31,790 bases of DNA from positions 1 through 31,790 of the IMG/VR virus record IMGVR_UViG_3300008069_000054; one strand, written 5' to 3'. This document shows, one piece after another, positions 1,958 to 30,740 of this stretch. The DNA is from a virus (Duplodnaviria > Heunggongvirae > Uroviricota > Caudoviricetes). A program made the translations under genes and the position numbers. Positions within the stretch are counted from its first letter, which is position 1; each line of letters starts with the position of its first letter. The notes below the pieces were generated by a model. That model saw only the letters and a list, made by a program, of their open reading frames with translations. It did no database searches and had not been told where the DNA came from.

Positions 1958-4405
1958 TTAACCGTCATGCATCATGCTGGCACGGGCGCGCGCACGTTTA
2001 TCCCGCTCGTATTTTTCGAGCGCATCCTGTAACTGGCGGTCAAGCTGTGTCCCCGGCGCAGTACCGCCCGTCAGGTTGATGTGATATTCGTTTTTACTCT
2101 GGTCCACATAAGAGCGACCAGCCGGTGCCGTGACCGGCTGGTAAGCCTGATAGCCTGCATAAGAGCTGGTCGCCGGAATATAACCACCTGTGCCATACGT
2201 GGCGGCATGAGTTCTGGCGGCGGTCTGGTCAAGTGCGTCAGACTCTTTGTTGATGACGCCGAGTTTTTCCAGTACCCAGTCAATACCGCTGCGCAGTTTG
2301 TTGAACGCATTAAGCGGCAGCATCAGCGCGTCAGCCAGTGCCTGCCCGAACATGACGCCAGTATCACGGCAACGGTTCAGGGTGTCCTGGGTGGCTTTGA
2401 CCGGGGCAATCAGGTTTTTAAACCACTGCCACGCGGCCTGTAACTTTTCACCCAGCCAGTCAAACACCGGTTTAAGTGGCGTGAACAGTTCCCCCACCGG
2501 CGCAAATGCCGCTTTCAGCCCTTCAATCACACCGCCAAAAAATGCGCTGACAGGCTCCCAGTATTTACGGATAAGTAACGCCCCGGCGACAATGGCGGCC
2601 ACCACGGCCACTACCGGCCAGCTAATCGCGCCGATAGCCGTCATAACGGCACTGCCAACCGTCGTGAAGATTGCCCCCATTGCACTTGCTGCTGCGATAA
2701 TGGCATTGATGCCGGTGATAACCGGCCAGGCTACGAGGCCAATGGCACCGATGACACCAATCAGCGCCAGTGCGCCACCGGCAATGAGACCAATGGTTGA
2801 CGCCAGTGATTTGTTTTTCTGTATCCAGCCGTCGAGTTTTAACACATACTTTGTGGCCGTCTGCGTGAGCTTACGCAGTGCGCCTTCCTGCTGGTCAAAC
2901 AGGTCTGTCCCCACCGCCTCATAAGCGGACTGAAACTCCTTAAAGTCACCGCCGAGGTTGTCCTGCATGATATTTACCAGCTCTGCGGTCTTCCCGTCTG
3001 AGGCTTTAAACGCAGCGGTCAGTTTGTCCAGCTTTCCGGTTGACGCGGCAGTCATCAGCACGGCGGCGGCTGAGCTGGCCTCCTCCCCGAAAATGGTTTT
3101 CATGTATTCAGCCTGCTGGGCAGTACCGAGCCGGTTTTTCTCAAAACTGGCCTGCATTTCTTTCAGAATGGTAAATACTGGTCGGGTGTTTCCCTTACTG
3201 TCTGAGGTTTTCACGCCAAGCTCTTTGAGTGCATCCCATGCTTTTCCCGTCGGTGCCTGCAGGCGACTTAACACGGCACGGCTTCCCGTCCCCGCCATTG
3301 AGCCTGTGATTTTTGCATCATGCAGCGCTCCGACCATTGCGGCGGTTTCTTCAATGCTGACACCGGCATTTTTTGCCACAGGTGCAGCATAGGTCAGCGC
3401 ATCGCTCATACCGTCAAAATCGGCGGCGGTTTTGTTCATCGTCATGGAGAGAACATCCCCAATATGAGCGACCTTATCGTTTGAAAGCTGAAAGGCGGAT
3501 TTCATCCCCATCAGCAGGGCAGCGTTTTCTTCCATCGTGCGGCGGTTCGCCAGCGCCATATTCAGCGTGACCGGCGTTGCCGCCTGAATGGCATCAACAT
3601 CCCCACCCGCTTTCGCGATGATTATCTGTGCACCGGCCGCATCATCCGCCGAGGCGGCGGTGTTGTCGCCGAGCTGGCGCGCCTGTTTGCGGAGCGCGGC
3701 CATTTCGGCGGAGTCTTTTGCCACTCCGAGCACAGCCTGTAATTCTGAGTTTTTCTGCGCAAACTCATAACCGGGCATCAGCAGCTTAACTCCGGCCATC
3801 GTTCCCGCCGCCGCAATCCCCACACCGGCAGCGCCCACTGAGGCCATATTTCCGGCCAGTTCCTTGCCGGCCTGATAACGCTGTTTGACTGCGTTAAGTT
3901 TTGCCTGTTGTGCACTGACACGCGCCAGTGCGTCGCGCTGACGGTTAAGCTGTGCGGTGGTTTCACTGATACGTTTTTTCAGCCCCTGCTCATCATGTGC
4001 AAGATTGCGGGTATTAATTCCCACAACGGCCAGTTCCCGCTGCTGGCGTTTAACGGAATCCGTCAGGCGGTTATATTTCGCCTGTAAGTCCTCCGCCGCA
4101 CGCTTCGCGGATTCCAGCACTTTCGCCTGAGCACGTGTCGGACGTTCGGTGTTTTTAAACTGTGTGGCAAGGGCTTCGGCCTCCTGCCGTGCCTTTTCAA
4201 GTGCATGACCAGTCACGGCGAGCTGTGCACTGGTCTTGCGAAATCCCTCAATACGGGATGCGTGACCGTTCAGCTCGCGCAGTGATTTTTGTGTTTCCCG
4301 GATATCCCCCGACAGCGATTTGCTCGCTGTGCGGATGGATTTAAACGGGCGGGATGCCTGGTCAACAGCCCTGAGCAATACCTGTAATTTTACATTGTTA
4401 CTCAT
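1958..4405 (-). CDS. T: Tail tape measure protein T
   Basis: 815 aa, coiled-coil-rich N-terminal half and Ala/Gly-rich hydrophobic segment typical of tape measure proteins; same length as P2 gpT; located directly downstream of E/E'. Confidence 0.92.
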   Translation of the reverse strand: MSNNVKLQVLLRAVDQASRPFKSIRTASKSLSGDIRETQKSLRELNGHASRIEGFRKTSAQLAVTGHALEKARQEAEALATQFKNTERPTRAQAKVLESAKRAAEDLQAKYNRLTDSVKRQQRELAVVGINTRNLAHDEQGLKKRISETTAQLNRQRDALARVSAQQAKLNAVKQRYQAGKELAGNMASVGAAGVGIAAAGTMAGVKLLMPGYEFAQKNSELQAVLGVAKDSAEMAALRKQARQLGDNTAASADDAAGAQIIIAKAGGDVDAIQAATPVTLNMALANRRTMEENAALLMGMKSAFQLSNDKVAHIGDVLSMTMNKTAADFDGMSDALTYAAPVAKNAGVSIEETAAMVGALHDAKITGSMAGTGSRAVLSRLQAPTGKAWDALKELGVKTSDSKGNTRPVFTILKEMQASFEKNRLGTAQQAEYMKTIFGEEASSAAAVLMTAASTGKLDKLTAAFKASDGKTAELVNIMQDNLGGDFKEFQSAYEAVGTDLFDQQEGALRKLTQTATKYVLKLDGWIQKNKSLASTIGLIAGGALALIGVIGAIGLVAWPVITGINAIIAAASAMGAIFTTVGSAVMTAIGAISWPVVAVVAAIVAGALLIRKYWEPVSAFFGGVIEGLKAAFAPVGELFTPLKPVFDWLGEKLQAAWQWFKNLIAPVKATQDTLNRCRDTGVMFGQALADALMLPLNAFNKLRSGIDWVLEKLGVINKESDALDQTAARTHAATYGTGGYIPATSSYAGYQAYQPVTAPAGRSYVDQSKNEYHINLTGGTAPGTQLDRQLQDALEKYERDKRARARASMMHDG

Positions 4406-4825
4406 TCGTGTTTCCGCTTCGCCGGAGCGCCTTTTCGCGCCATGTGATGAGTTCGGTCAGGCTCATGGGATACAGTTCTGATGGCGGCCAGTGAAATATC
4501 ACTGCCACATCCGCCATCAGGTCATCGACCGAGAGATTTTTCGGAAACGTCACTGCACCGAGTTCGGCGACAAAAAACCGACCACCTTACCGGCCAGCGC
4601 CACAAGGTCAGGCAGTTCCAGTGCGGCGACTTCCTGCTCGGTCAGCATCGGTGCCGTCATGCGCGGCAACACCTTAATCAGTGCATCGACTTCGGAGTTT
4701 GCGACCGCTGCCAGACTGACACCGCGCAGCGTCCCGGCACTGGGTTTCATCAGCGTGACCTGTTCGATAACCTGCTCACCACGTTTGACCGGATTGTCCA
4801 GGGTAATCACATTTTCTTTGTTCAT
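4398..4825 (-). CDS. E': Tail assembly chaperone E+E' (programmed -1 ribosomal frameshift product, 142 aa)
   Basis: Minus-strand heptamer TTTTTTG at about 4571-4577 inside E. The -1 frame continues for 57 codons (VAELGAVTFPKNLSVDDLMADVAVIFHWPPSELYPMSLTELITWREKALRRSGNTNE) and stops at 4398-4400, overlapping the T start codon. 85 + 57 = 142 aa, as in P2 E+E'. Confidence 0.85.
4550..4825 (-). CDS. E: Tail assembly chaperone E
   Basis: 91-aa ORF MNKENVITLDNPVKRGEQVIEQ... in the position of P2 gpE; ends 9 codons after the T6G slippery run. Confidence 0.9.
   Translation of the reverse strand: MNKENVITLDNPVKRGEQVIEQVTLMKPSAGTLRGVSLAAVANSEVDALIKVLPRMTAPMLTEQEVAALELPDLVALAGKVVGFLSPNSVQ
4571..4577 (-). 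other. Slippery heptamer TTTTTTG for the E/E' -1 frameshift
   Basis: Read directly: plus-strand CAAAAAA at 4571-4577 is TTTTTTG on the minus strand, in frame as GGT-TTT-TTG of E. Confidence 0.85.
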
Positions 4826-4881
4826 GGTTTTCTCACTTATGAATCGGGGTTAACCGGTCAGCCAGGCTGACCGGATGAAAA

Positions 4882-5400
4882 TCACAGGCCGATATTGCGG
4901 CGGTGTTGCTCCAGCCGGTCGACGCCGTTCACCTTCTCAATCATGTTGATGGTGTCGATTTCGACCAGCTCCTTACCGTCCATCGTCAGCCGGAAATAGG
5001 TGCAGACCACGGAGATTTTCGACTCGGTGTCTTCTCCCTGTTTACCCTCGCCGGTGTCGATTTCTTTCTGACGTCCACGCATGACCACCTCGACGGCCAC
5101 CGTTTCGCCGGTATCGTCACGCTGGTAAGAGCCTGCAAAACGAATCGGCACAGCATCCACACCGGTTGCGGCGTAAAGCTCCCAGATAACCGAATCCGGG
5201 AAGCCACCCAGCGACCACTCCATTGACAGCGCATCGTCATCAAGGCCGAGGTCTACCGGTGCGCTGCCGTTCATTCCCGCACCGCGATAGTTTTCGAGCT
5301 TACGGGTCAGTTTTGGCAGCGTGACGGACTTTGCAACGCCCTGATAGCTGTAGCCGTTCAGAAAGACGTTCATTAACTTGAGTTTGCGCGGCATTGCCAT
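4882..5400 (-). CDS. FII: Tail tube protein FII
   Basis: 172 aa, same length as P2 gpFII; immediately downstream of FI. Confidence 0.92.
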   Translation of the reverse strand: MAMPRKLKLMNVFLNGYSYQGVAKSVTLPKLTRKLENYRGAGMNGSAPVDLGLDDDALSMEWSLGGFPDSVIWELYAATGVDAVPIRFAGSYQRDDTGETVAVEVVMRGRQKEIDTGEGKQGEDTESKISVVCTYFRLTMDGKELVEIDTINMIEKVNGVDRLEQHRRNIGL

Positions 5401-5412
5401 CGGTCAGGCTCC

Positions 5413-6603
5413 TTAATTGCTGTTAACCGAGGTGACCAGATTTGCCAGGTATTTATCGGTAATACGCTGGCGCAGGGTCAGGTTTTCGAGAGGAGGCACC
5501 GGTGTATAGTCGTAGTCGATATACAGTTTTCCGGCCTTGAGGGTTTCCGCATCATTGGCTTCTTCACTGAACCAGCATGTGCCATCCACGATATAACCGT
5601 TGCTTTTCAGTTCACGGAATTTGGCATTGATGCCGTCAACGATGTCGCGAATCAGCGTTGCGGTGATGGGCTTATCAATAGCCCACATGTGTGCCTCAGC
5701 CATCGTGTCAGCCAGTACCTGCGCGGTGCGTGTGTAGCTTTCAAAGAGGAACAGTGGGTCATCGGAGCAGGTACGGTTACCCCAGAAACGGAAACCGTCG
5801 CGGCGAACCAGCGTTGTGACGCCTGCCTCGTTCAGTAGGTCAGCATCAGTGCCGGACTTCTGCAAATCCCAGAATACAGATGCGCTGATGCCGGTAACAC
5901 CGTTTACCCCGACGTTGGACAGCGTTTTATGCCAGCCCTGCTCCTGGTCGATTTTAGCGCGCAGACCCAGCGCACGGGCGGTGGCATACGCGGTGGCGGT
6001 GGTGCTGGTGACCGTATCCCATGCGAGGAAATCCGGCCAGATGACCATCAGCTCACGCTGGCTGAAATTCTGGCGGTAGGCTTTCACCTCGGAAATGGTT
6101 TTACAGCCCCATGCACTGATATACCCGAATGCATTCAGTTCCTGGCATACCGATGCCAGTGCGACGGCAACCTCTTTGGTGTCCAGCCCCGGCACACCAA
6201 GAATGCGCGGTTTAACGCCGGTAACCGACTCAGCCCCCATCAGGGCTTTCAGTCCGGTGTACTGACCGTTTTCGTCAGTGGTGCCGATGATATTGGAAAC
6301 GGTCTGCGCGAGTTTCGTTTCCTCGTCGTCGCCGGTGCCGTCTTCCACACGCACGACAACGGTGACCGGTTTTGACTGGTCGGCGATGGCCTGCAACGAT
6401 GCCGCTAGCGTGCCTTTTTTACCAGCCTTTGCAATTGCGCTCTGCACATTGGTAATCAGCACCGGTTTATTGAGGGGGAAGGTTTCCGCATCCGCATCGC
6501 TGGCCGTGCAGACCATGCCGACAATGGCAGTGGATACGGTGGAAATGACGCGGGTGCCGTCGTTAATCTCCAGCACCTGCACGCCGTGATGATAGTCACT
6601 CAT
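5413..6603 (-). CDS. FI: Contractile tail sheath protein FI
   Basis: 396 aa, same length as P2 gpFI; position and sheath-like sequence. Confidence 0.93.
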   Translation of the reverse strand: MSDYHHGVQVLEINDGTRVISTVSTAIVGMVCTASDADAETFPLNKPVLITNVQSAIAKAGKKGTLAASLQAIADQSKPVTVVVRVEDGTGDDEETKLAQTVSNIIGTTDENGQYTGLKALMGAESVTGVKPRILGVPGLDTKEVAVALASVCQELNAFGYISAWGCKTISEVKAYRQNFSQRELMVIWPDFLAWDTVTSTTATAYATARALGLRAKIDQEQGWHKTLSNVGVNGVTGISASVFWDLQKSGTDADLLNEAGVTTLVRRDGFRFWGNRTCSDDPLFLFESYTRTAQVLADTMAEAHMWAIDKPITATLIRDIVDGINAKFRELKSNGYIVDGTCWFSEEANDAETLKAGKLYIDYDYTPVPPLENLTLRQRITDKYLANLVTSVNSN

Positions 6604-20508: not shown

Positions 20509-22281
20509 ATGACCATCACCACAGACACCACTCTTTTACACGACCCGCGTCGTCAGGCGGCGCTGCTGTACTGGCAGGGGTTTTCCGTGCCGCAGATTGC
20601 CGCCATGTTGCAGATGAAACGCCCGACGGTGCAGAGCTGGAAACAGCGCGACGGCTGGGACAGCGTTGCCCCCATCAGCCGTGTCGAAATGAGTCTGGAA
20701 GCGCGGCTGACCCAGCTCATTATCAAACCGCAGAAAACCGGCGGTGACTTCAAGGAAATTGACCTGCTCGGACGCCAGATTGAACGACTGGCACGGGTAA
20801 ACCGCTACAGCCAGACCGGCAACGAGGCAGACCTTAATCCGAACGTCGCTAACCGCAACAAAGGCGGGCGGCGCAAACCGAAAAAGAATTTTTTCAGTGA
20901 CGAGGCTATCGAAAAGCTGGAGCAGATTTTCTTTGAGCAGTCTTTCGACTATCAGTTGCACTGGTATCGCGCCGGGCTTGAGCACCGCATCCGCGATATC
21001 CTGAAATCCCGCCAGATTGGCGCGACATTTTATTTTTCCCGCGAGGCGCTGCTGCGCGCCCTGAAAACCGGTCATAACCAGATTTTTCTGTCGGCCAGTA
21101 AAACGCAGGCGTATGTGTTCCGTGAATACATCATCGCCTTTGCCCGTCTGGTTGACGTTGACCTGACCGGTGACCCGATTGTCCTGGGCAATAACGGCGC
21201 AAAACTGATTTTTCTCGGCACCAACTCCAACACCGCACAGAGCCATAACGGTGACCTGTACGTCGACGAGATTTTCTGGATCCCAAATTTTCAGGTTCTG
21301 CGTAAGGTGGCATCAGGTATGGCCTCACAGAGTCACCTGCGCTCGACCTATTTCTCCACCCCGTCCACACTGGCGCACGACGCCTACCCGTTCTGGTCGG
21401 GTGAACTGTTCAACCGGGGACGCGCCAGCGCCGCCGAACGTGTGGAAATCGACGTCAGTCATAACGCCCTTGCCGGTGGGCTTCTCTGTGCGGACGGCCA
21501 GTGGCGGCAGATTGTCACCATTGAGGACGCCCTGAAAGGTGGCTGCACACTGTTCGACATTGAGCAGCTCAAACGCGAAAACAGCGCCGACGATTTTAAA
21601 AACCTGTTCATGTGTGAATTTGTTGACGACAAGGCATCGGTGTTCCCGTTCGAGGAGCTGCAACGCTGCATGGTCGACACGCTGGAAGAATGGGAAGACT
21701 ATGCACCGTTTGCCGCCAATCCGTTCGGCTCCCGCCCGGTATGGATTGGTTACGACCCGTCACACCGTGGCGACAGCGCCGGATGCGTGGTGCTGGCACC
21801 GCCGGTGGTGGCCGGTGGCAAATTCAGGATACTTGAGCGTCACCAGTGGAAAGGCATGGACTTTGCCACCCAGGCTGAATCCATCCGCAAACTCACCGAA
21901 AAATATAACGTCGAATACATCGGTATTGATGCCACCGGCCTCGGTGTCGGCGTGTTCCAGCTCGTGCGCTCGTTCTATCCCGCCGCGCGCGATATCCGCT
22001 ACACACCGGAAATGAAAACCGCAATGGTGCTCAAGGCAAAAGACGTTATCCGCCGTGGCTGTCTGGAATATGACGTCAGCGCCACCGACATCACCAGCTC
22101 GTTTATGGCTATCCGCAAGACCATGACCAGCAGCGGACGCAGCGCCACCTATGAGGCCAGTCGCAGCGAGGAAGCCAGCCACGCCGACCTCGCCTGGGCG
22201 ACCATGCACGCCCTGTTAAATGAGCCACTCACCGCCGGTATCAGCACCCCGCTGACATCCACCATTCTGGAGTTTTACTGA
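20509..22281 (+). CDS. P: Terminase ATPase (large) subunit P
   Basis: From the internal Met MTITTDTTLLHDPRRQAALLYWQGFSVPQIAAM... the protein is 590 aa, matching P2 gpP; the supplied ORF begins 10 codons upstream. Confidence 0.92.
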   Translation: MTITTDTTLLHDPRRQAALLYWQGFSVPQIAAMLQMKRPTVQSWKQRDGWDSVAPISRVEMSLEARLTQLIIKPQKTGGDFKEIDLLGRQIERLARVNRYSQTGNEADLNPNVANRNKGGRRKPKKNFFSDEAIEKLEQIFFEQSFDYQLHWYRAGLEHRIRDILKSRQIGATFYFSREALLRALKTGHNQIFLSASKTQAYVFREYIIAFARLVDVDLTGDPIVLGNNGAKLIFLGTNSNTAQSHNGDLYVDEIFWIPNFQVLRKVASGMASQSHLRSTYFSTPSTLAHDAYPFWSGELFNRGRASAAERVEIDVSHNALAGGLLCADGQWRQIVTIEDALKGGCTLFDIEQLKRENSADDFKNLFMCEFVDDKASVFPFEELQRCMVDTLEEWEDYAPFAANPFGSRPVWIGYDPSHRGDSAGCVVLAPPVVAGGKFRILERHQWKGMDFATQAESIRKLTEKYNVEYIGIDATGLGVGVFQLVRSFYPAARDIRYTPEMKTAMVLKAKDVIRRGCLEYDVSATDITSSFMAIRKTMTSSGRSATYEASRSEEASHADLAWATMHALLNEPLTAGISTPLTSTILEFY

Positions 22282-23315
22282 TGAGCAAGAAAAAAGGGAA
22301 AACACCGCAACCTGCGGTGAAAACAATGACCGCCAGCGCCCCGAAAATGGAGGCATTCACCTTTGGTGAGCCGGTGCCGGTACTCGACCGCCGTGACATT
22401 CTGGATTACGTCGAGTGCATCAGTAACGGCAGATGGTATGAGCCACCGGTCAGCTTTACCGGTCTGGCAAAAAGCCTGCGTGCTGCCGTACATCACAGCT
22501 CACCGATTTACGTCAAACGTAATATTCTGGCTTCAACGTTTATTCCGCACCCGTGGCTTTCCCAGCAGGATTTCAGCCGCTTTGTGCTGGATTTTCTGGT
22601 GTTCGGTAATGCGTTTCTGGAAAAGCGTTACAGCACCACCGGTAAGGTCATCAGACTGGAAACCTCACCGGCAAAATATACCCGCCGTGGCGTGGAAGAG
22701 GATGTTTACTGGTGGGTGCCGTCCTTCCATGAGCCGACACCTTTCGCGCCCGGCTCCGTGTTTCACCTGCTGGAGCCGGATATTAATCAGGAGCTGTACG
22801 GTCTGCCGGAATATCTCAGCGCCCTTAACTCTGCCTGGCTGAATGAATCAGCCACGCTGTTCCGCCGCAAGTATTACGAAAACGGCGCTCATGCCGGATA
22901 CATCATGTACGTCACTGATGCCGTGCAGGATCGCAACGATATCGAAATGCTCCGCGAAAACATGGTTAAGTCAAAAGGCCGCAACAACTTTAAAAACCTG
23001 TTTCTCTATGCCCCACAGGGAAAAGCCGACGGCATTAAAATTATCCCGCTCAGTGAAGTGGCGACGAAGGACGATTTTTTTAATATCAAAAAAGCCAGTG
23101 CCGCAGACCTGCTGGACGCGCACCGCATCCCCTTTCAGTTGATGGGCGGCAAGCCGGAGAACGTCGGGTCGCTGGGTGATATTGAGAAAGTGGCAAAGGT
23201 CTTTGTCCGCAATGAGCTTATCCCGTTACAGGACAGGATCCGCGAGATAAACGGCTGGCTCGGTCAGGAGGTCATCCGCTTTAAAAACTACTCACTGGAC
23301 ACTGACAACGGCTGA
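22281..23315 (+). CDS. Q: Portal (capsid vertex) protein Q
   Basis: 344 aa, same length as P2 gpQ; start overlaps the P stop (TGATG). Confidence 0.93.
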   Translation: MSKKKGKTPQPAVKTMTASAPKMEAFTFGEPVPVLDRRDILDYVECISNGRWYEPPVSFTGLAKSLRAAVHHSSPIYVKRNILASTFIPHPWLSQQDFSRFVLDFLVFGNAFLEKRYSTTGKVIRLETSPAKYTRRGVEEDVYWWVPSFHEPTPFAPGSVFHLLEPDINQELYGLPEYLSALNSAWLNESATLFRRKYYENGAHAGYIMYVTDAVQDRNDIEMLRENMVKSKGRNNFKNLFLYAPQGKADGIKIIPLSEVATKDDFFNIKKASAADLLDAHRIPFQLMGGKPENVGSLGDIEKVAKVFVRNELIPLQDRIREINGWLGQEVIRFKNYSLDTDNG

Positions 23316-23467: not shown

Positions 23468-23586
23468 CGCCCGCTTCGTGGGACGATTTTAATGCAGTTG
23501 CCCGCATTAGCTGAATCCGCGCCAGAACAGACATTATGGATATGTCAATACGAACTTATTGACGTGCAAAATCATGCAATCAAGCG

Positions 23587-23613
23587 CAAAAAAAACCGCC
23601 TTCAAAGAGGCGG
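23587..23613 (-). terminator. Rho-independent terminator downstream of the kinase-HIRAN gene
   Basis: Hairpin ACCGCCT-tcaaag-AGGCGGT followed on the minus strand by a run of eight T (plus-strand A8 at about 23587-23594), about 20 nt after the stop of the 547-aa ORF. Confidence 0.8.
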
Positions 23614-23632
23614 TTTATGTTATCCCATTGGA

Positions 23633-25276
23633 TTAAGATCTACATTCAACTAAAAGGTACACTAATGGACGTTCTGGCGTCCCATTCTTCTTTGCAACAA
23701 AAGCAGATATTTTGTGTTTTGCTATTTTTTGCTTGAGTTTTTTACATAACACTTTGTTTATATAACCAAGTTTCCCGCTCTCATGAACAACAGCTATAGC
23801 ATGTGGATCAACCGGGTTATCCTCTTCAGGAACAAGCTTGACCAAATCACCGACCATTACTTTCGACAAATCAAGCCCTTCCTGATAACGAGTTCCTGCC
23901 ACTTCAAAAAGAAGCTCACCTTCACTATTAAGAATTTCTGGATCTGGCACCAAACAAAAACCATCGCCAGGTGATTTTGCTCCTGTATATCCTAACAGCG
24001 CAAAATCAGAGCCTTCAAATGGATGGGGGAGCAAATGTTGAGCCAGATACTCAGCAAAGTCTTTTCTTTTCCGTGGTGGTAAACGCCGAACAAACGGGTC
24101 AAGCACGTTGTTCGTATGTTCTTCACTTTTCAGACTAAATGCGGGATGTCCTGCAAACCCTTTCTCTTGGGCTTTAGCATAATCTTCTGACTGAAAATGG
24201 TATGTGAAGACGTAGTTATCCCCTTGCTGACGATCAATCTGACCAACAACATAACGAGTACCGCCTGTGGGTGGCTGCCATGTAAGAAGCAACCGAGTAG
24301 GCTCCATTATTCTGTTTATAGTACGCATATTTAGAATCAGTGATAACCTTAGGTATCTACGCCTCAATAAACGAATCGTCCAATCCGCTCGTTCCCTAGT
24401 GAACGGCACATCGGAGCTAATTTCGCAAAGTGAATCTATCTTGTCGACCAGTTCCTGAAAATCAAATTCAAGTCTCCGGGCCAAGTACGCTTTTGACTGC
24501 TCATCAAGAGCCAAATCCTGTATAGAAGAAATATGACCTAATCGTTCATGCGTGTCTGCCCGATTCTTCCGCAAATGATGACAACCACGCTGTATGTATT
24601 CATCTACATTTTGATGGTTCCATCCTCTGATCCTCTCTACATACCTTTCATGCCCCAAACTAGTACCATTATCGAAATATGGTGCGAGATATCCCTTCAC
24701 TTTAGGTGGCGTTATGCCTGGTGCAGATTCAGGTACAAAAACAAAACCCCAATTCTCTTGGTGTCTATCACTATTACCGATGAGCGCATCAAAAAGCAGC
24801 ATATCGTAAAGCCATTGGATCCAGTCTGGAGAGATCAGGCCGCGGATACTAAAAGCCCTACAAATTAAGCGTAGATCAACAAGGTTATGGTGTCTTCCGG
24901 AAGAGTCATCAAAATCCGATATCAACACATGAAAAAAATCAGACGCATGAACAAATAACTGGCTACTTTGATCGTAAAACCACTCAAGCAAAGCTCCATA
25001 TTCGTATTCACCGTTCTCCATCATTCTTCGCGCTGGCAATGCTTTAGGAACAGGAACGCCCATAACATCTCCAACTATATAAGCAACGGTTTCCATCCAG
25101 TACTGATCGGGATAAGCATCTCTTGAGAGTTTAAAAAGATAAGGCCATTCCGGTTTTATCCCCTCAGGAGCATCATTCGGTGACCAAAGCATTTTTTTAT
25201 CCCTCGCTCCTCGAGGAAAAATGCCATGCTCATCATCTTTACGCCAACTAGTTACATCTATTAAATTGATATCCAT
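23633..25276 (-). CDS. HipA-like Ser/Thr protein kinase fused to a C-terminal HIRAN domain (hotspot cargo; candidate defence or abortive-infection effector)
   Basis: 547-aa ORF. The motif LLFDALIGNSDRHQENWGF matches the HipA/CtkA-family catalytic loop (GNxDRHxxN). The C-terminal approximately 90 aa (GTRYQEGLDLSKVMVGDLVKLVPEEDNPVDPHAIAVVHESGKLGYINKV) matches the HIRAN pattern (G.ry...G..v.L..E..NpyDpnAi.V.....lGY). Strongly AT-rich DNA (about one third GC in hand-counted stretches). Replaces tin/old of P2. Confidence 0.7.
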   Translation of the reverse strand: MDINLIDVTSWRKDDEHGIFPRGARDKKMLWSPNDAPEGIKPEWPYLFKLSRDAYPDQYWMETVAYIVGDVMGVPVPKALPARRMMENGEYEYGALLEWFYDQSSQLFVHASDFFHVLISDFDDSSGRHHNLVDLRLICRAFSIRGLISPDWIQWLYDMLLFDALIGNSDRHQENWGFVFVPESAPGITPPKVKGYLAPYFDNGTSLGHERYVERIRGWNHQNVDEYIQRGCHHLRKNRADTHERLGHISSIQDLALDEQSKAYLARRLEFDFQELVDKIDSLCEISSDVPFTRERADWTIRLLRRRYLRLSLILNMRTINRIMEPTRLLLTWQPPTGGTRYVVGQIDRQQGDNYVFTYHFQSEDYAKAQEKGFAGHPAFSLKSEEHTNNVLDPFVRRLPPRKRKDFAEYLAQHLLPHPFEGSDFALLGYTGAKSPGDGFCLVPDPEILNSEGELLFEVAGTRYQEGLDLSKVMVGDLVKLVPEEDNPVDPHAIAVVHESGKLGYINKVLCKKLKQKIAKHKISAFVAKKNGTPERPLVYLLVECRS

Positions 25277-25285
25277 ATCTTACGG

Positions 25286-25837
25286 TTACCCAGCTAATGC
25301 ACGGAAAGCAGCACTAACATAAGCTACCTGAAACTTTGCATCTCGAAGCGCATGATGCGCATCAGTAACATTAATGGAAAAATTTGCCCTTACATCAATA
25401 TTCTTAAGGCTTTTAGCTAGTTCAACGATGGTACGCACGTCTCGATCATTTCGAAAACGCCATGGGATATTTTGCGCATGTTTACGGTAAACCGCTGCCA
25501 ATATAGCGTTATCAAAGCTTGCCCCATTCCCCCAAACTTGTACGTCATCGTTACTACGACTTCGTACAAATAGAGAAAATTCTTGTAAGGCTTCATGTAA
25601 GTCAACAGCAGACGGGTCATTAAAAACCGCCCTTGCAGAATCGCTTTGTATCATCCACCACTGTAAAGTTTTTGGGTCTACAAAACTATTTTCCAATGCA
25701 GATGATAGGGTTATAACTCTATAAAACTCATCCCCACACTTGCCAGTCAGAGGCTCAAAGAACACAGCGCCGATTGAAATCAAAGGAGCATCCATTGACA
25801 CACCTAATGTTTCTATATCGAGCATTAAATTATTCAT
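25286..25837 (-). CDS. DEDDh-type (DnaQ-like) 3'-5' exonuclease
   Basis: 183-aa ORF starting MNNLMLDIETLGV... (Exo I motif D-x-E), with HHALRDA near the C-terminus (Exo III H-x4-D, DEDDh subtype). It lies 9 nt upstream of the kinase-HIRAN gene on the same strand (operon). AT-rich. Confidence 0.7.
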   Translation of the reverse strand: MNNLMLDIETLGVSMDAPLISIGAVFFEPLTGKCGDEFYRVITLSSALENSFVDPKTLQWWMIQSDSARAVFNDPSAVDLHEALQEFSLFVRSRSNDDVQVWGNGASFDNAILAAVYRKHAQNIPWRFRNDRDVRTIVELAKSLKNIDVRANFSINVTDAHHALRDAKFQVAYVSAAFRALAG

Positions 25838-25906
25838 TTAACCTCCACCCCAGACATAGCTCAGGGAAACGTAACCTATTGAAATAACGAATCAAGTATT
25901 TGTCAC

Positions 25907-25934
25907 ATTCTATACTAAAACATTCGAATTCCAA
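25907..25934 (-). promoter_or_regulatory. Candidate sigma70 promoter for the exonuclease/kinase operon
   Basis: Minus-strand TTGGAA, 16-nt spacer, TAGAAT about 70 nt upstream of the exonuclease ATG. An alternative weaker promoter (TTCAAA ... TATACA) overlaps the LexA box itself. Assigned by eye only. Confidence 0.35.
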
Positions 25935-25977
25935 AACTTCAGCTTTTGCAACCCCTTACAAGTCAATTGATCCATAA

Positions 25978-25997
25978 TACTGTATACATACACAGTA
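25978..25997. promoter_or_regulatory. LexA box (SOS box) upstream of the cargo operon
   Basis: TACTGTATACATACACAGTA read directly; CTGT-N8-ACAG is perfect and 18 of 20 positions match the E. coli LexA consensus TACTGTATATATATACAGTA. Lies between the A stop (26016) and the exonuclease start (25837). Confidence 0.75.
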
Positions 25998-26015
25998 CTA
26001 CATTTGAAAAACAAA

Positions 26016-28292
26016 TCAAGGGAAATCATTAAAACCCGGCCAATCACAACAAGGCGGATAAACAAATTTTTTCATGTCATAAATAACTTCTGCCCCACGA
26101 GCCAGCGCCTCAAGCTCCCATCTCTGAGGCCTGATACCGTTCTGAGCAAGGTCAACGCGGATACGGGTGATTTGCAATCGTTCAGACCGGGTCAGTCTGG
26201 CCGATGGTGCAATTTCATGCGGTTTTAACGGGCTTCCGTTTCTTTGCTGACGGTTTGGTCTTCTCAGGCCGTATTTTAATGCACCTCTGAGCGCCCTCAC
26301 GACCTCCGGGTCATTCCATTCGATAACACCGTCATCAACCAGATTAAGCACTGCTGCGGCGTGCTCAGAAGGTGTGGGAGCCAGTAACGAAGTATCACCA
26401 CCGGTGAGCTTTCCACAGTTATTGACAGGACTCCGAGGCGCGGCGATGCCGCTTTTTAAAGTCAAAGGCTCAACGACCGGAACTTTCGGCACAATGCGCC
26501 AGTCCGTCGTTCTGGTGATATGAATATGACGCGCGCCGAGATGCGGCGCGTAAATGCCGACCACTCTCTCGACTTCTTCCTCGTACTCGTTAACGTCATC
26601 CGACAGACTACGGGCGACCCTGACAGTCTGACAATCGCGCGGGACATTTGCCCCGCCCTGCGCGCTGATATACAGCGCAAAATCACCACTGTCTGCGGCG
26701 GCGCGTGCAGCCTCGACGCGCTCGTCAAACTCATCAGCAATGCTGACGCCGCGAGGCAATTTGCGTAGTTCACGGTAAGCCCCCATTGTCGGCAGGCCAA
26801 CCGTTTTAAATTGCGGAATGCGCCACGTTGACGCCCATGCGGTAACAGCCGCGGCAGTATCTTTCAGCGGTCTGCCGGTATCGTTATCGAGCTGCCCATC
26901 CAGTGCATAGCCGTCGATATTTTTTGAGATGTATTTCGCGATATACCCCGCAGCACCGCCCCGATTAAGATGTTTTGCCTGAAAACGGTTTCGCGCGGCT
27001 CCTCTTTCGTCGCCATCCTCTTTGAGCGCATAGCGACGCATGATTTCGATAATCTGGTTACGCTGGCGTGGATTACAAAAAAGCATCATATGCCAGTGCG
27101 GCGTTCCGTCGTGGTGTGGCTCGACGACTCGCAAACCGTAGACCTGTAAATCATTATCCTTGAATGCCGTGCGCATCAGGCTCCAGATACGGCAGAGATA
27201 ACGCTGCGCATCCTTTGGATTAAATGCCTCATCGTTCCAGCCGTGATTAAGCTGAACGGTTTTACTTTCGCCTTTTCCGACCTGACGTGTCGGGTGATAC
27301 TTTGACGGCGCGGTCAGCGTGATAAACATCCCCACATCACCCTCTGCGGCGGCGTAACGCTCAATACCGGCAATGGTGTTCATCAGCTCCATCCGGCGAA
27401 TTTCAGGATTAGAAATACTGCCCATCACCTTACTGATAAGGTCGATGCGCTCGCCGGTTTCCCTGTTTTCAAGGTCACACGATTTAAGAAATTCCAGATT
27501 TGCCTGGCGGCGCGCACGCACATCACGAATGGCGTGTTTACTGGCATAAGGAGAACGGTCTTTATTGACCTCCCCGACAGCTATCAGTAACGCCTCATGC
27601 CAGCGCATACGCTGGCCTTTAAGCTGATGAGTCCACCACTCATCGTTAAACAGGCGGGCAATGGCAGAATATGCCTGCCTCGTGGTCATCTGTCCTTTAC
27701 GGTATTTTTTCCAGTAGAGCGGGGAAATATTGAAAGCACGTGCAGCGCCAGCAACATGACCATACAGGTGAGCCTGCGCCTCATCCGTAAACAGCGATTC
27801 TTTTTCACCATGCGCATCAACCCATGCATCGCAGAGTTCCTCATACATCATGAAAAGCTGCGATGAGATACGGGCGGCAAACTTTTTCAGCTCCTTGTCA
27901 TTCATTCCCGGCAGGCGCGCATAGTGGTCACGCTCTGCCAGAAACAGCAACGACGCGTCGGTGTTCATTTCATGGCGCTGATTCACACGCTCAATGCGCG
28001 GCCATAAACGACGCTGAAAAGTAGATGTGAGGAAATAAAATCCGTGCACCGGGCTTTTATTGCGCCGGATGTAGTCATAGCGTGAAGTAAACAGCGAGCG
28101 CAAAAAGTAAGGCAGGCGATTAATCGTGGATAAAACACCTTGCACCTGACGCATCTCGTCACGTGTAAGGGGTCTTTCGCGCCCGACAGCCTCGCGTGGC
28201 GCGTTCCATGCATAAGCACCGGTAAACGTCTTACCGGTGCCTGCGGCAAATGCTGACGGAGGGACAAAACGCCCGGAGGCTTTAACGGCCAT
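26016..28292 (-). CDS. A: Replication initiation protein A (rolling-circle nickase)
   Basis: Translation from the internal Met MAVKASGRFVPPSAFAAGTGK... is near-identical over most of its length to P2 gpA as I recall it; the supplied ORF extends 14 codons upstream. C-terminal residues differ from P2. Confidence 0.92.
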   Translation of the reverse strand: MAVKASGRFVPPSAFAAGTGKTFTGAYAWNAPREAVGRERPLTRDEMRQVQGVLSTINRLPYFLRSLFTSRYDYIRRNKSPVHGFYFLTSTFQRRLWPRIERVNQRHEMNTDASLLFLAERDHYARLPGMNDKELKKFAARISSQLFMMYEELCDAWVDAHGEKESLFTDEAQAHLYGHVAGAARAFNISPLYWKKYRKGQMTTRQAYSAIARLFNDEWWTHQLKGQRMRWHEALLIAVGEVNKDRSPYASKHAIRDVRARRQANLEFLKSCDLENRETGERIDLISKVMGSISNPEIRRMELMNTIAGIERYAAAEGDVGMFITLTAPSKYHPTRQVGKGESKTVQLNHGWNDEAFNPKDAQRYLCRIWSLMRTAFKDNDLQVYGLRVVEPHHDGTPHWHMMLFCNPRQRNQIIEIMRRYALKEDGDERGAARNRFQAKHLNRGGAAGYIAKYISKNIDGYALDGQLDNDTGRPLKDTAAAVTAWASTWRIPQFKTVGLPTMGAYRELRKLPRGVSIADEFDERVEAARAAADSGDFALYISAQGGANVPRDCQTVRVARSLSDDVNEYEEEVERVVGIYAPHLGARHIHITRTTDWRIVPKVPVVEPLTLKSGIAAPRSPVNNCGKLTGGDTSLLAPTPSEHAAAVLNLVDDGVIEWNDPEVVRALRGALKYGLRRPNRQQRNGSPLKPHEIAPSARLTRSERLQITRIRVDLAQNGIRPQRWELEALARGAEVIYDMKKFVYPPCCDWPGFNDFP

Positions 28293-28557
28293 ATGAGCCA
28301 AAAGCCTCTGAAAAACGCTTGCTGAGTTGCTCAACCTGCGCGTTTAAATCAGCAAAAGACTTTGCGCTTCCGGTCAGAATATCGTGATGCATCAGGCCGG
28401 AAACGAGCTGGCTTAATTTCGGGTAATAACCAACCACCGCCAGCCATTCCTGACCGGCGTTTTTACCGCTTTCCGCTCTCTTTTTCTCGTGGAGAATAAA
28501 CTGAAAGCTGTCACTGGTAACGACATAACGTTCGCCAATTTCAATACGAATACTCAT
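28282..28557 (-). CDS. Hypothetical protein (P2 orf83 position)
   Basis: 91-aa ORF immediately upstream of A, in the early operon. Confidence 0.65.
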   Translation of the reverse strand: MSIRIEIGERYVVTSDSFQFILHEKKRAESGKNAGQEWLAVVGYYPKLSQLVSGLMHHDILTGSAKSFADLNAQVEQLSKRFSEAFGSYGR

Positions 28558-30446: not shown

Positions 30447-30740
30447 ATGAAATTAAGCGAAAAGATTAAGGCCTTGCGTGAGGCTGAAGGGCTAAGCCAA
30501 TCAAAATTCTGTGAAATCATAGAGTTACCGCTAAGCACACTTAAAAAATATGAAGGAGGAAACTTTGAACCCGGTGGCACAGCTTTGCTAAAAATCACTA
30601 TGCATCCCACATTCCAAAAATATGCTCTATGGCTTATGACAGATAAAACCGCGCCGGACGCAGGACAAATCGCACCGGCTCTCGCGCACATTGGGCCAGA
30701 GTCAACAGAGTCCAACCACTCCGCGAAAAGGATTGGCTAA
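30447..30740 (+). CDS. C: Immunity repressor C (P2 C-like)
   Basis: 97-aa protein; C-terminal half (ITMHPTFQKYALWLMTDKTAPDAGQIAPALAH...) resembles P2 repressor C; N-terminal HTH region diverged. Position upstream of int and divergent from cox. Confidence 0.85.
   Translation: MKLSEKIKALREAEGLSQSKFCEIIELPLSTLKKYEGGNFEPGGTALLKITMHPTFQKYALWLMTDKTAPDAGQIAPALAHIGPESTESNHSAKRIG

Follow-up and report, generated by a model that had tools for sequence, protein, structure and literature searches.

A predicted LexA operator ahead of an exonuclease–HipL kinase cargo operon in a P2-like prophage

The Escherichia coli chromosome carries several LexA-repressed toxin genes, namely tisB, symE, hokE and dinJ-yafQ. 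Among phages, LexA-controlled operons downstream of the replication gene A are already known from 186, Fels-2 and PSP3, and occlusion of promoters by LexA is textbook knowledge. The SOS operon of phage 186 consists of the promoter p95 with its LexA operator, tum, t95a and orf97 (GenBank U32222); p95 is annotated as TTCACA-18-TACTGT, with the LexA site starting at that -10, and orf97 supplied from a plasmid blocks 186 infection (U32222 record). Tum acts as an antirepressor according to work cited in PMC3121763. Split tum/dinI SOS modules have been described for Fels-2 and PSP3, and LexA-controlled antirepressors for Gifsy prophages and N15 (PMC3121763).

In toxin-antitoxin modules, kinases of the HipA family serve as toxins, and the HipL architecture was named by Gerdes et al. 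in 2021, with HipL described as monocistronic (PMC8262856); HIRAN domains bind 3' DNA ends according to work cited in that paper. Clusters of a DEDD diDNase with HipA and HIRAN are found in Gram-positive bacteria, in Actinomycetes and Clostridia (PMC11706625). Neither of these papers on HipL and HipA-HIRAN proteins mentions LexA or SOS. Likewise, SOS or LexA control is not mentioned in two papers on the P2 hotspot, PMC9122126 and the main text of PMC13586616.

The locus described here resembles the 186 operon in that its cargo comes immediately after A and reads in the same direction, closing the early region ahead of cos and the portal gene. At the sequence level its box begins at a -10 of TACTGT, as in 186, and it likewise precedes passenger genes; in relatives of the cassette, Tum still stands between box and exonuclease. 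Unlike 186, it lacks tum, its immunity is of the P2-type C and Cox kind rather than 186 CI/Apl, it carries an exonuclease and a HipL kinase as passengers where 186 has orf97, and it has no detectable p95 DNA similarity outside the box. Lacking tum, it has no link to prophage induction, whereas 186 does. The modules of Fels-2, PSP3, Gifsy and N15 also induce the prophage, while the module studied here has lost the antirepressor and DinI genes. Similar to tisB, symE, hokE and dinJ-yafQ, a toxin-family protein stands behind a LexA box, HipL being likened to them by predicted family; unlike those chromosomal genes, this operon belongs to a phage and forms part of the cargo of a defence hotspot. 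The cargo shares its three-domain kinase with described HipL (PMC8262856), matches both halves of the PADLOC candidate defence system PDC-M03 and, like the clusters of PMC11706625, has a DEDD-family nuclease gene adjoining HipA/HIRAN; hipL of Enterobacterales, unlike described HipL, has an exonuclease gene and a LexA box ahead of it. Finally, old and tin of phage P2 occupy the same variable A-to-portal (A-to-Q) locus with anti-phage type cargo (NC_001895; PMC9122126; PMC13586616); they read toward A, the opposite way to the present cargo, from a promoter near cos and have no LexA site (NC_001895).

The prophage and its exonuclease–hipL cargo

The stretch of DNA analyzed (the window; all 31,790 nucleotides) is a P2-like prophage read in reverse. 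Its plus strand carries int (30780 onward), the gene for the C protein (30447–30740; a 97-aa HTH protein of P2-type immunity), the terminase gene P and the portal gene Q (22281–23315). The minus strand holds cox, B, small early genes and the replication gene A (26016–28334; Pfam Phage_GPA, E = 3e-124). The order is A, box, cargo, terminator and Q, and the cargo is co-directional with A. The immunity region consists of P2-type C and Cox with no 186-type CI repressor, tblastn found no Tum homologue in the window, and phage P2 itself has no LexA-like site of at least 10 bits between A and cos. The earlier note had started from P2 itself not being SOS-inducible, and a non-inducible phage of P2 type is what these observations support.

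The first cargo gene (25286–25837, minus strand) encodes a 183-aa DEDDh 3'-5' exonuclease (Pfam Rv2179c-like, E = 6.8e-57; RefSeq name 3'-5' exonuclease). The second (23633–25276, minus strand) starts 9 nt after the exonuclease stop and encodes a 547-aa HipL-type kinase, in which Pfam places HipA_C at residues 23–206, Couple_hipA at 343–437 and HIRAN at 453–525. [quoted passage not shown] Two PADLOC profiles match the same protein, PDC-M03A at residues 4–308 (E = 4e-31) and PDC-M03B at 325–525 (E = 1e-30), and the two are therefore fused here. A search of solved structures returned remote matches only, to exodeoxyribonuclease 8kel for the exonuclease (E = 2e-5) and to CtkA for the kinase (E = 1e-3). 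A terminator-like hairpin with a T-run (23585–23616, minus strand) follows the hipL stop by 17 nt and marks the end of the operon. In these loci hipL is not monocistronic, as the exonuclease gene precedes it in the window and in 12 others. No minus-strand terminator was found between A and the cargo within 25200–26300, which makes read-through from the early operon likely during lytic growth.

By blastn, copies of the A-to-cargo spacer DNA turned up only at 99% identity or above: 61 of the 5426 complete E. coli genomes have one, as do phages 899 and GMG73. Since all copies were this similar, footprinting was moved to loci anchored on the kinase protein. Among the E. coli matches listed, the two spacers below 100% identity each differ by one base. 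One (L174, E. coli EC100) carries G instead of A at 25979, a position of the box whose arm then reads TGCTGT, the form seen in the lexA and colicin operators; the second (L173, E. coli LD27-1) carries C instead of T at 25975, three bases beyond the box. Phages 899 and GMG73, both of 33,804 bp and matching the searched parts of the window at 100%, are the only carriers of hipL among 50,697 phage records. The Clostridioides phage phiCDKH02 carries a split HipA plus HIRAN pair.

The LexA box and its candidate promoter

The predicted LexA operator (SOS box), called on sequence, score and conservation, occupies 25978–25997 and reads TACTGTATACATACACAGTA on the plus strand and TACTGTGTATGTATACAGTA on the gene (minus) strand. 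It lies in the 178-bp spacer (25838–26015) between the A stop codon TGA (26018–26016, minus strand) and the first cargo ATG at 25837. Compared with the consensus TACTGTATATATATACAGTA, it matches at 18 of 20 positions, with two mismatches and a perfect CTGT-N8-ACAG core. Reading of the letters, the consensus count and the coordinates all agree with the earlier note, which had described this core and its place between the A stop and the cargo operon. No other site in the 31.8-kb window comes within three mismatches of the LexA consensus, and none of 100 shuffles produced one.

The weight-matrix scoring that the earlier note had proposed was carried out with a matrix of 30 E. coli operators, and the resulting scores, 24.7 bits and a heterology index of 4.1, are approximate; on this matrix the site ranks about fifth among the 30 operators, and the recA and sulA operators score worse. 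Proven LexA operators reportedly have a heterology index below about 12.6, a threshold that is said to go back to Lewis et al. in 1994, and the approximate value of 4.1 falls inside that range. From the exact score distribution, the per-position probability of the score is 1e-9 to 1e-8, giving an expectation of about 2e-7 to 1.5e-6 chance sites in the spacer and 4e-5 to 3e-4 in the whole window; a chance origin in the intergenic spacer is therefore as improbable as first suggested. Another LexA-like sequence, TCCTGTATATCCTAACAGCG (23981–24000, 15 bits), lies inside hipL and also has a perfect CTGT-N8-ACAG. It was rejected as a second LexA site, as diverged homologous loci have no counterpart of at least 15 bits, and it is probably a chance occurrence.

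The gene strand following the A stop reads cccTTGATTtgtttttcaaatgtagTACTGTgtatgtatacagta. A candidate sigma-70 promoter overlapping the box, P1, is composed of a -35 TTGATT (26019–26014), a 16-nt spacer and a -10 TACTGT (25997–25992), all on the minus strand. The -35 lies in the last codons of A and overlaps its stop codon, and the -10 is the promoter-proximal arm of the LexA box. The match to consensus is weak (four of six positions for the -35, three of six for the -10), and a generic promoter scan did not call P1, preferring a promoter 44 nt downstream. The arrangement parallels 186 p95, whose -10 in U32222 is likewise TACTGT and overlaps the LexA site in the same way. Spacing of the -35 is kept in relatives: in L083, L163 and L164, as in the window, a TTGATT, TTGAAT or TTGCTT hexamer precedes the box by exactly 16 nt, and the spacer sequence differs among these loci.

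The leader from box to exonuclease start (25838–25977, minus strand) measures 140 nt, a greater box-to-ATG distance than in many SOS genes. It contains no conserved ORF; two candidates, a 21-aa ATG ORF and a 34-aa TTG ORF, were rejected, as neither is conserved as coding in L083, L163 and L164. It has no Rfam match at an E-value of 1 or less, and an RNA element is not supported by its consensus fold (-5.5 kcal/mol, one compensatory pair). The promoter-like match preferred by the scan, TTGGAA-16-TAGAAT (25907–25934, minus strand), here called the P2 element, is the sole promoter called by consensus (9 of 12 matches), begins 44 nt downstream of the box and is not overlapped by it. It is the best conserved leader block in the four tum-less loci of P2 type (the window, L083, L163 and L164); matches of its quality are expected 2.6 times by chance in the 1.1 kb scanned. 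The spacer of the element, within the block 25907–25945 (minus strand), holds the palindrome ATTCGAAT, which in L164 is replaced by ATTTAAAT, a double change by which the palindrome is kept. The block may act as a promoter independent of LexA, or another protein may bind it.

Relatives of the cassette and descent of its promoter

Thirteen exonuclease-hipL loci, found via the kinase protein, were compared: the window (Escherichia), two from Serratia, two from Proteus, and one each from Yersinia mollaretii, Kluyvera, Klebsiella, Pantoea, Atlantibacter, Shewanella, a MAG and one further genome. The 12 relatives range from 88% down to 53% identity to the window's HipL. A LexA box of 18.6–29.3 bits lies upstream of the exonuclease in 12 of the 13 loci, the exception (L086, Shewanella) having transposase genes immediately upstream. 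Aligned by the box, the sequences share a mean pairwise identity of 0.82 inside it versus 0.33 in the 45-nt flanks on each side, and across loci the centre of the box varies while the consensus arms hold. Among other P2-like loci, a box of at least 18 bits follows A in 6 of 79 (Fisher p = 6e-10, with loci that are not independent). In 76 distant hipL/hipIN loci that lack the exonuclease, no box precedes the kinase gene; a strong one occurs in two of these loci, at least 2 kb past the kinase start.

The neighborhood of the cassette is variable. Other genes separate the box from A in L085, L164 and L166, and no A is nearby in L163, where cassette and box lie behind a SymE toxin gene, or in L170, where the cassette is outside P2-like prophages, adjoins ahpCF and keeps a 26.6-bit box without the P2 element. 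This pattern favors the earlier suggestion that the site serves the downstream cargo, with which it appears to travel. In L163 (3236–3298) and L164 (3232–3294), some 40 nt immediately preceding the box look like the final codons of A (...DW..F..DF..); the real A gene of L164 stops 430 nt before this stretch and is directly followed by a weak 16.8-bit box. It looks as if the cassette travels with the A 3' end that carries the P1 -35.

Several further arrangements were observed. Immediately before the box, the same hotspot in L163 (1791–2772) also has a Gp49/HTH (HigBA-like) pair and the SymE-family toxin gene; in E. coli K-12, the toxin SymE is induced by the SOS response. In L167 (Klebsiella, 2749–2783), two overlapping boxes of 25.3 and 19.3 bits, offset by 15 nt, precede split tum/dinI and exonuclease-hipL. 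L171 (Aeromonas salmonicida, 3292–5863) is a P2-like prophage with hipL directly after an S24-peptidase CI-type repressor gene and no exonuclease gene; a 22-bit LexA box follows hipL, in front of the integrase gene.

Seven of the relatives contain the box, then within 20–40 nt an RBS and a Tum-like gene, and then the exonuclease gene and hipL. L166 encodes a full 153-aa Tum (197 bits in comparison with the Tum of phage 186) and adjoins 186-type CI, CP76 and Fil. In L167 and L085, tum is split and Tum-N is accompanied by a DinI gene, which is the layout of Fels-2 and PSP3 (LexA box, small antirepressor gene and DinI beside it) placed upstream of exonuclease-hipL. L084, L165, L168 and L169 have Tum-N only, with the signature ER(I/V)(D/E)LIARL...REIAL...IAEL. 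In the five tum-less loci (the window, L083, L163, L164 and L170), the box is followed by a leader of 80–141 nt and then the exonuclease gene. With a Tum homologue first and exonuclease-hipL next in seven relatives, the cargo holds the place of orf97 in the 186 p95-tum-orf97 operon. The argument for descent from a 186-type promoter comes from these relatives and not from the window's own sequence, whose alignment with 186 p95 shows no DNA homology beyond the box. Both the likeness to the 186 tum operon at the equivalent position and the capture of a 186-like SOS promoter by the cargo, proposed in the earlier note, find support in the tum-bearing relatives. The operon of the window is accordingly best described as a tum-less derivative of a 186-type SOS operon, a reading these comparisons support, in which the promoter would have lost its prophage-induction gene.

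Proposed regulation, alternatives and implications

We consider it likely that 25978–25997 is a functional LexA operator on P1, through which LexA would shut the promoter and DNA damage would induce the exonuclease and HipL. The basis for this is the sequence, a design in common with an annotated promoter, and conservation, from which binding, the transcription start and repression with induction are inferred. P1 would be read leftward on the minus strand to the terminator at 23616–23585. As long as the lysogen suffers no DNA damage, a LexA dimer bound there would cover the -10 and the start region and keep P1 shut; upon DNA damage, RecA-stimulated self-cleavage of LexA would free P1 and induce the operon. 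By descent, P1 would be the promoter of an operon of the p95-tum-orf97 type from which tum was lost, and with tum gone from a P2-type, non-inducible phage, LexA would control only the passenger genes. During lytic growth, read-through from A probably contributes to transcription of the operon as well, and basal transcription from the P2 element is possible. With this conserved element lying downstream of the box, LexA may not be the sole control. Expression from the P2 element may be LexA independent, in which case LexA control could be a boost rather than an on-off switch.

A further step in that direction would be that the P2 element drives the operon and the box, left over from the lost tum promoter, adds little or nothing. 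The element is the only promoter called by the scan and the best conserved leader block in its four loci, and LexA bound at the box could not occlude an element 44 nt downstream. Prophage conversion genes such as old and tin of phage P2 are expressed in lysogens. An old-tin mRNA start is mapped in the P2 record (NC_001895). A useless box should decay, however, and all five tum-less loci keep a near-consensus box (24.7–27.8 bits) even as the 40 nt on either side diverge and its central 8 bases vary; the -35 spacing is kept as well, L170 retains its strong box in the absence of any P2 element, and promoter-like matches as good as this element are expected by chance. Such partial or vestigial control is therefore regarded as unlikely. 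The palindrome might instead have a structural role, either as an RNA hairpin ending the A transcript (terminator or processing site) or as a recombination junction of the cassette. As RNA, the region forms a 12-bp hairpin (-12 kcal/mol, z = -3.9), and the palindrome lies 18 nt past the A stop, at the edge of an exchangeable cassette. But any LexA box is a palindrome and will fold, and conservation across loci concerns the LexA consensus (TACTGT, an AT-rich centre and ACAGT) and not compensatory stem changes. In relatives, moreover, other genes intervene between box and A, or A is not nearby at all. A terminator function was rejected, there being no U-run after the palindrome and no terminator called on the minus strand within 25200–26300, and a structural role in general is considered very improbable.

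Symmetry of the box would equally permit a LexA-controlled promoter on the plus strand, directed antisense into the 3' end of A, and CATAAT (25973–25978, plus strand) does resemble a -10. This hexamer has no -35 at 16–18 nt, the scan called no plus-strand promoter, and in relatives the cargo side always presents an RBS with a Tum-like gene or the exonuclease gene while the opposite side varies, leaving this arrangement with very little probability. A chance match devoid of function might be entertained for so AT-rich a spacer, yet with at most 1.5e-6 sites expected there and a box in 12 of the 13 loci, it is barely conceivable and was ruled out by that conservation. A functional LexA operator on P1 thus remains the favored explanation.

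We know of no trigger or target of HipL kinases. The predicted LexA control, a HIRAN of the 3'-end-binding kind and a 3'-5' exonuclease together direct attention to DNA damage or single-stranded DNA as the context, and such a combination would fit a response to DNA that is damaged or single-stranded. The response might consist in arrest of growth, as TisB brings about, in defence, or in interference with SOS-induced prophages residing in the same cell.

In 80 P2-like loci, all LexA-like sites of at least 14 bits were located downstream of A. Boxes of 19–27 bits were seen before other A-to-portal cargo in L004 (5823–5842), L012, L081 (6440–6459), L039 (6590–6609), L073 (6590–6609) and L056 (6109–6128). 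The cargo preceded by such boxes includes a Panacea (SocA-like) antitoxin with a 190-aa partner, for which the box is kept in two loci with different upstream flanks, an ABC-3C set (CTD9, MC5 and an LmuB-like ATPase), a C5-methyltransferase plus HNH nuclease, and an 85-aa ORF. That SOS gating is recurrent for A-to-portal cargo of P2 and 186 relatives, with the 186 SOS promoter as a landing pad for damage-switched passengers, is put forward as a tentative and somewhat doubtful generalization. If it is true, HipL would be a damage-armed effector supplied by cleavage of LexA, its HIRAN would sense the 3' DNA ends on which the exonuclease acts, and the consequence could be arrested growth, or else the blocking of co-resident SOS-induced prophages or of infecting phages.

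Judged against the searchable literature, three points appear to be new: exonuclease-hipL as a conserved unit under a predicted LexA box, a HipL that would not be monocistronic in Enterobacterales, and a P2-type phage apparently keeping an SOS promoter without tum. The exonuclease-hipL pair thereby gains a conserved regulatory input, predicted from sequence. For hotspot cargo cloned with its native promoter and assayed in undamaged cells, the prediction implies that LexA-repressed systems may stay silent and be scored as inactive. More broadly, a phage regulatory module would here have outlived its purpose, the induction promoter of 186 persisting in a non-inducible P2-type phage where it would drive passengers only.
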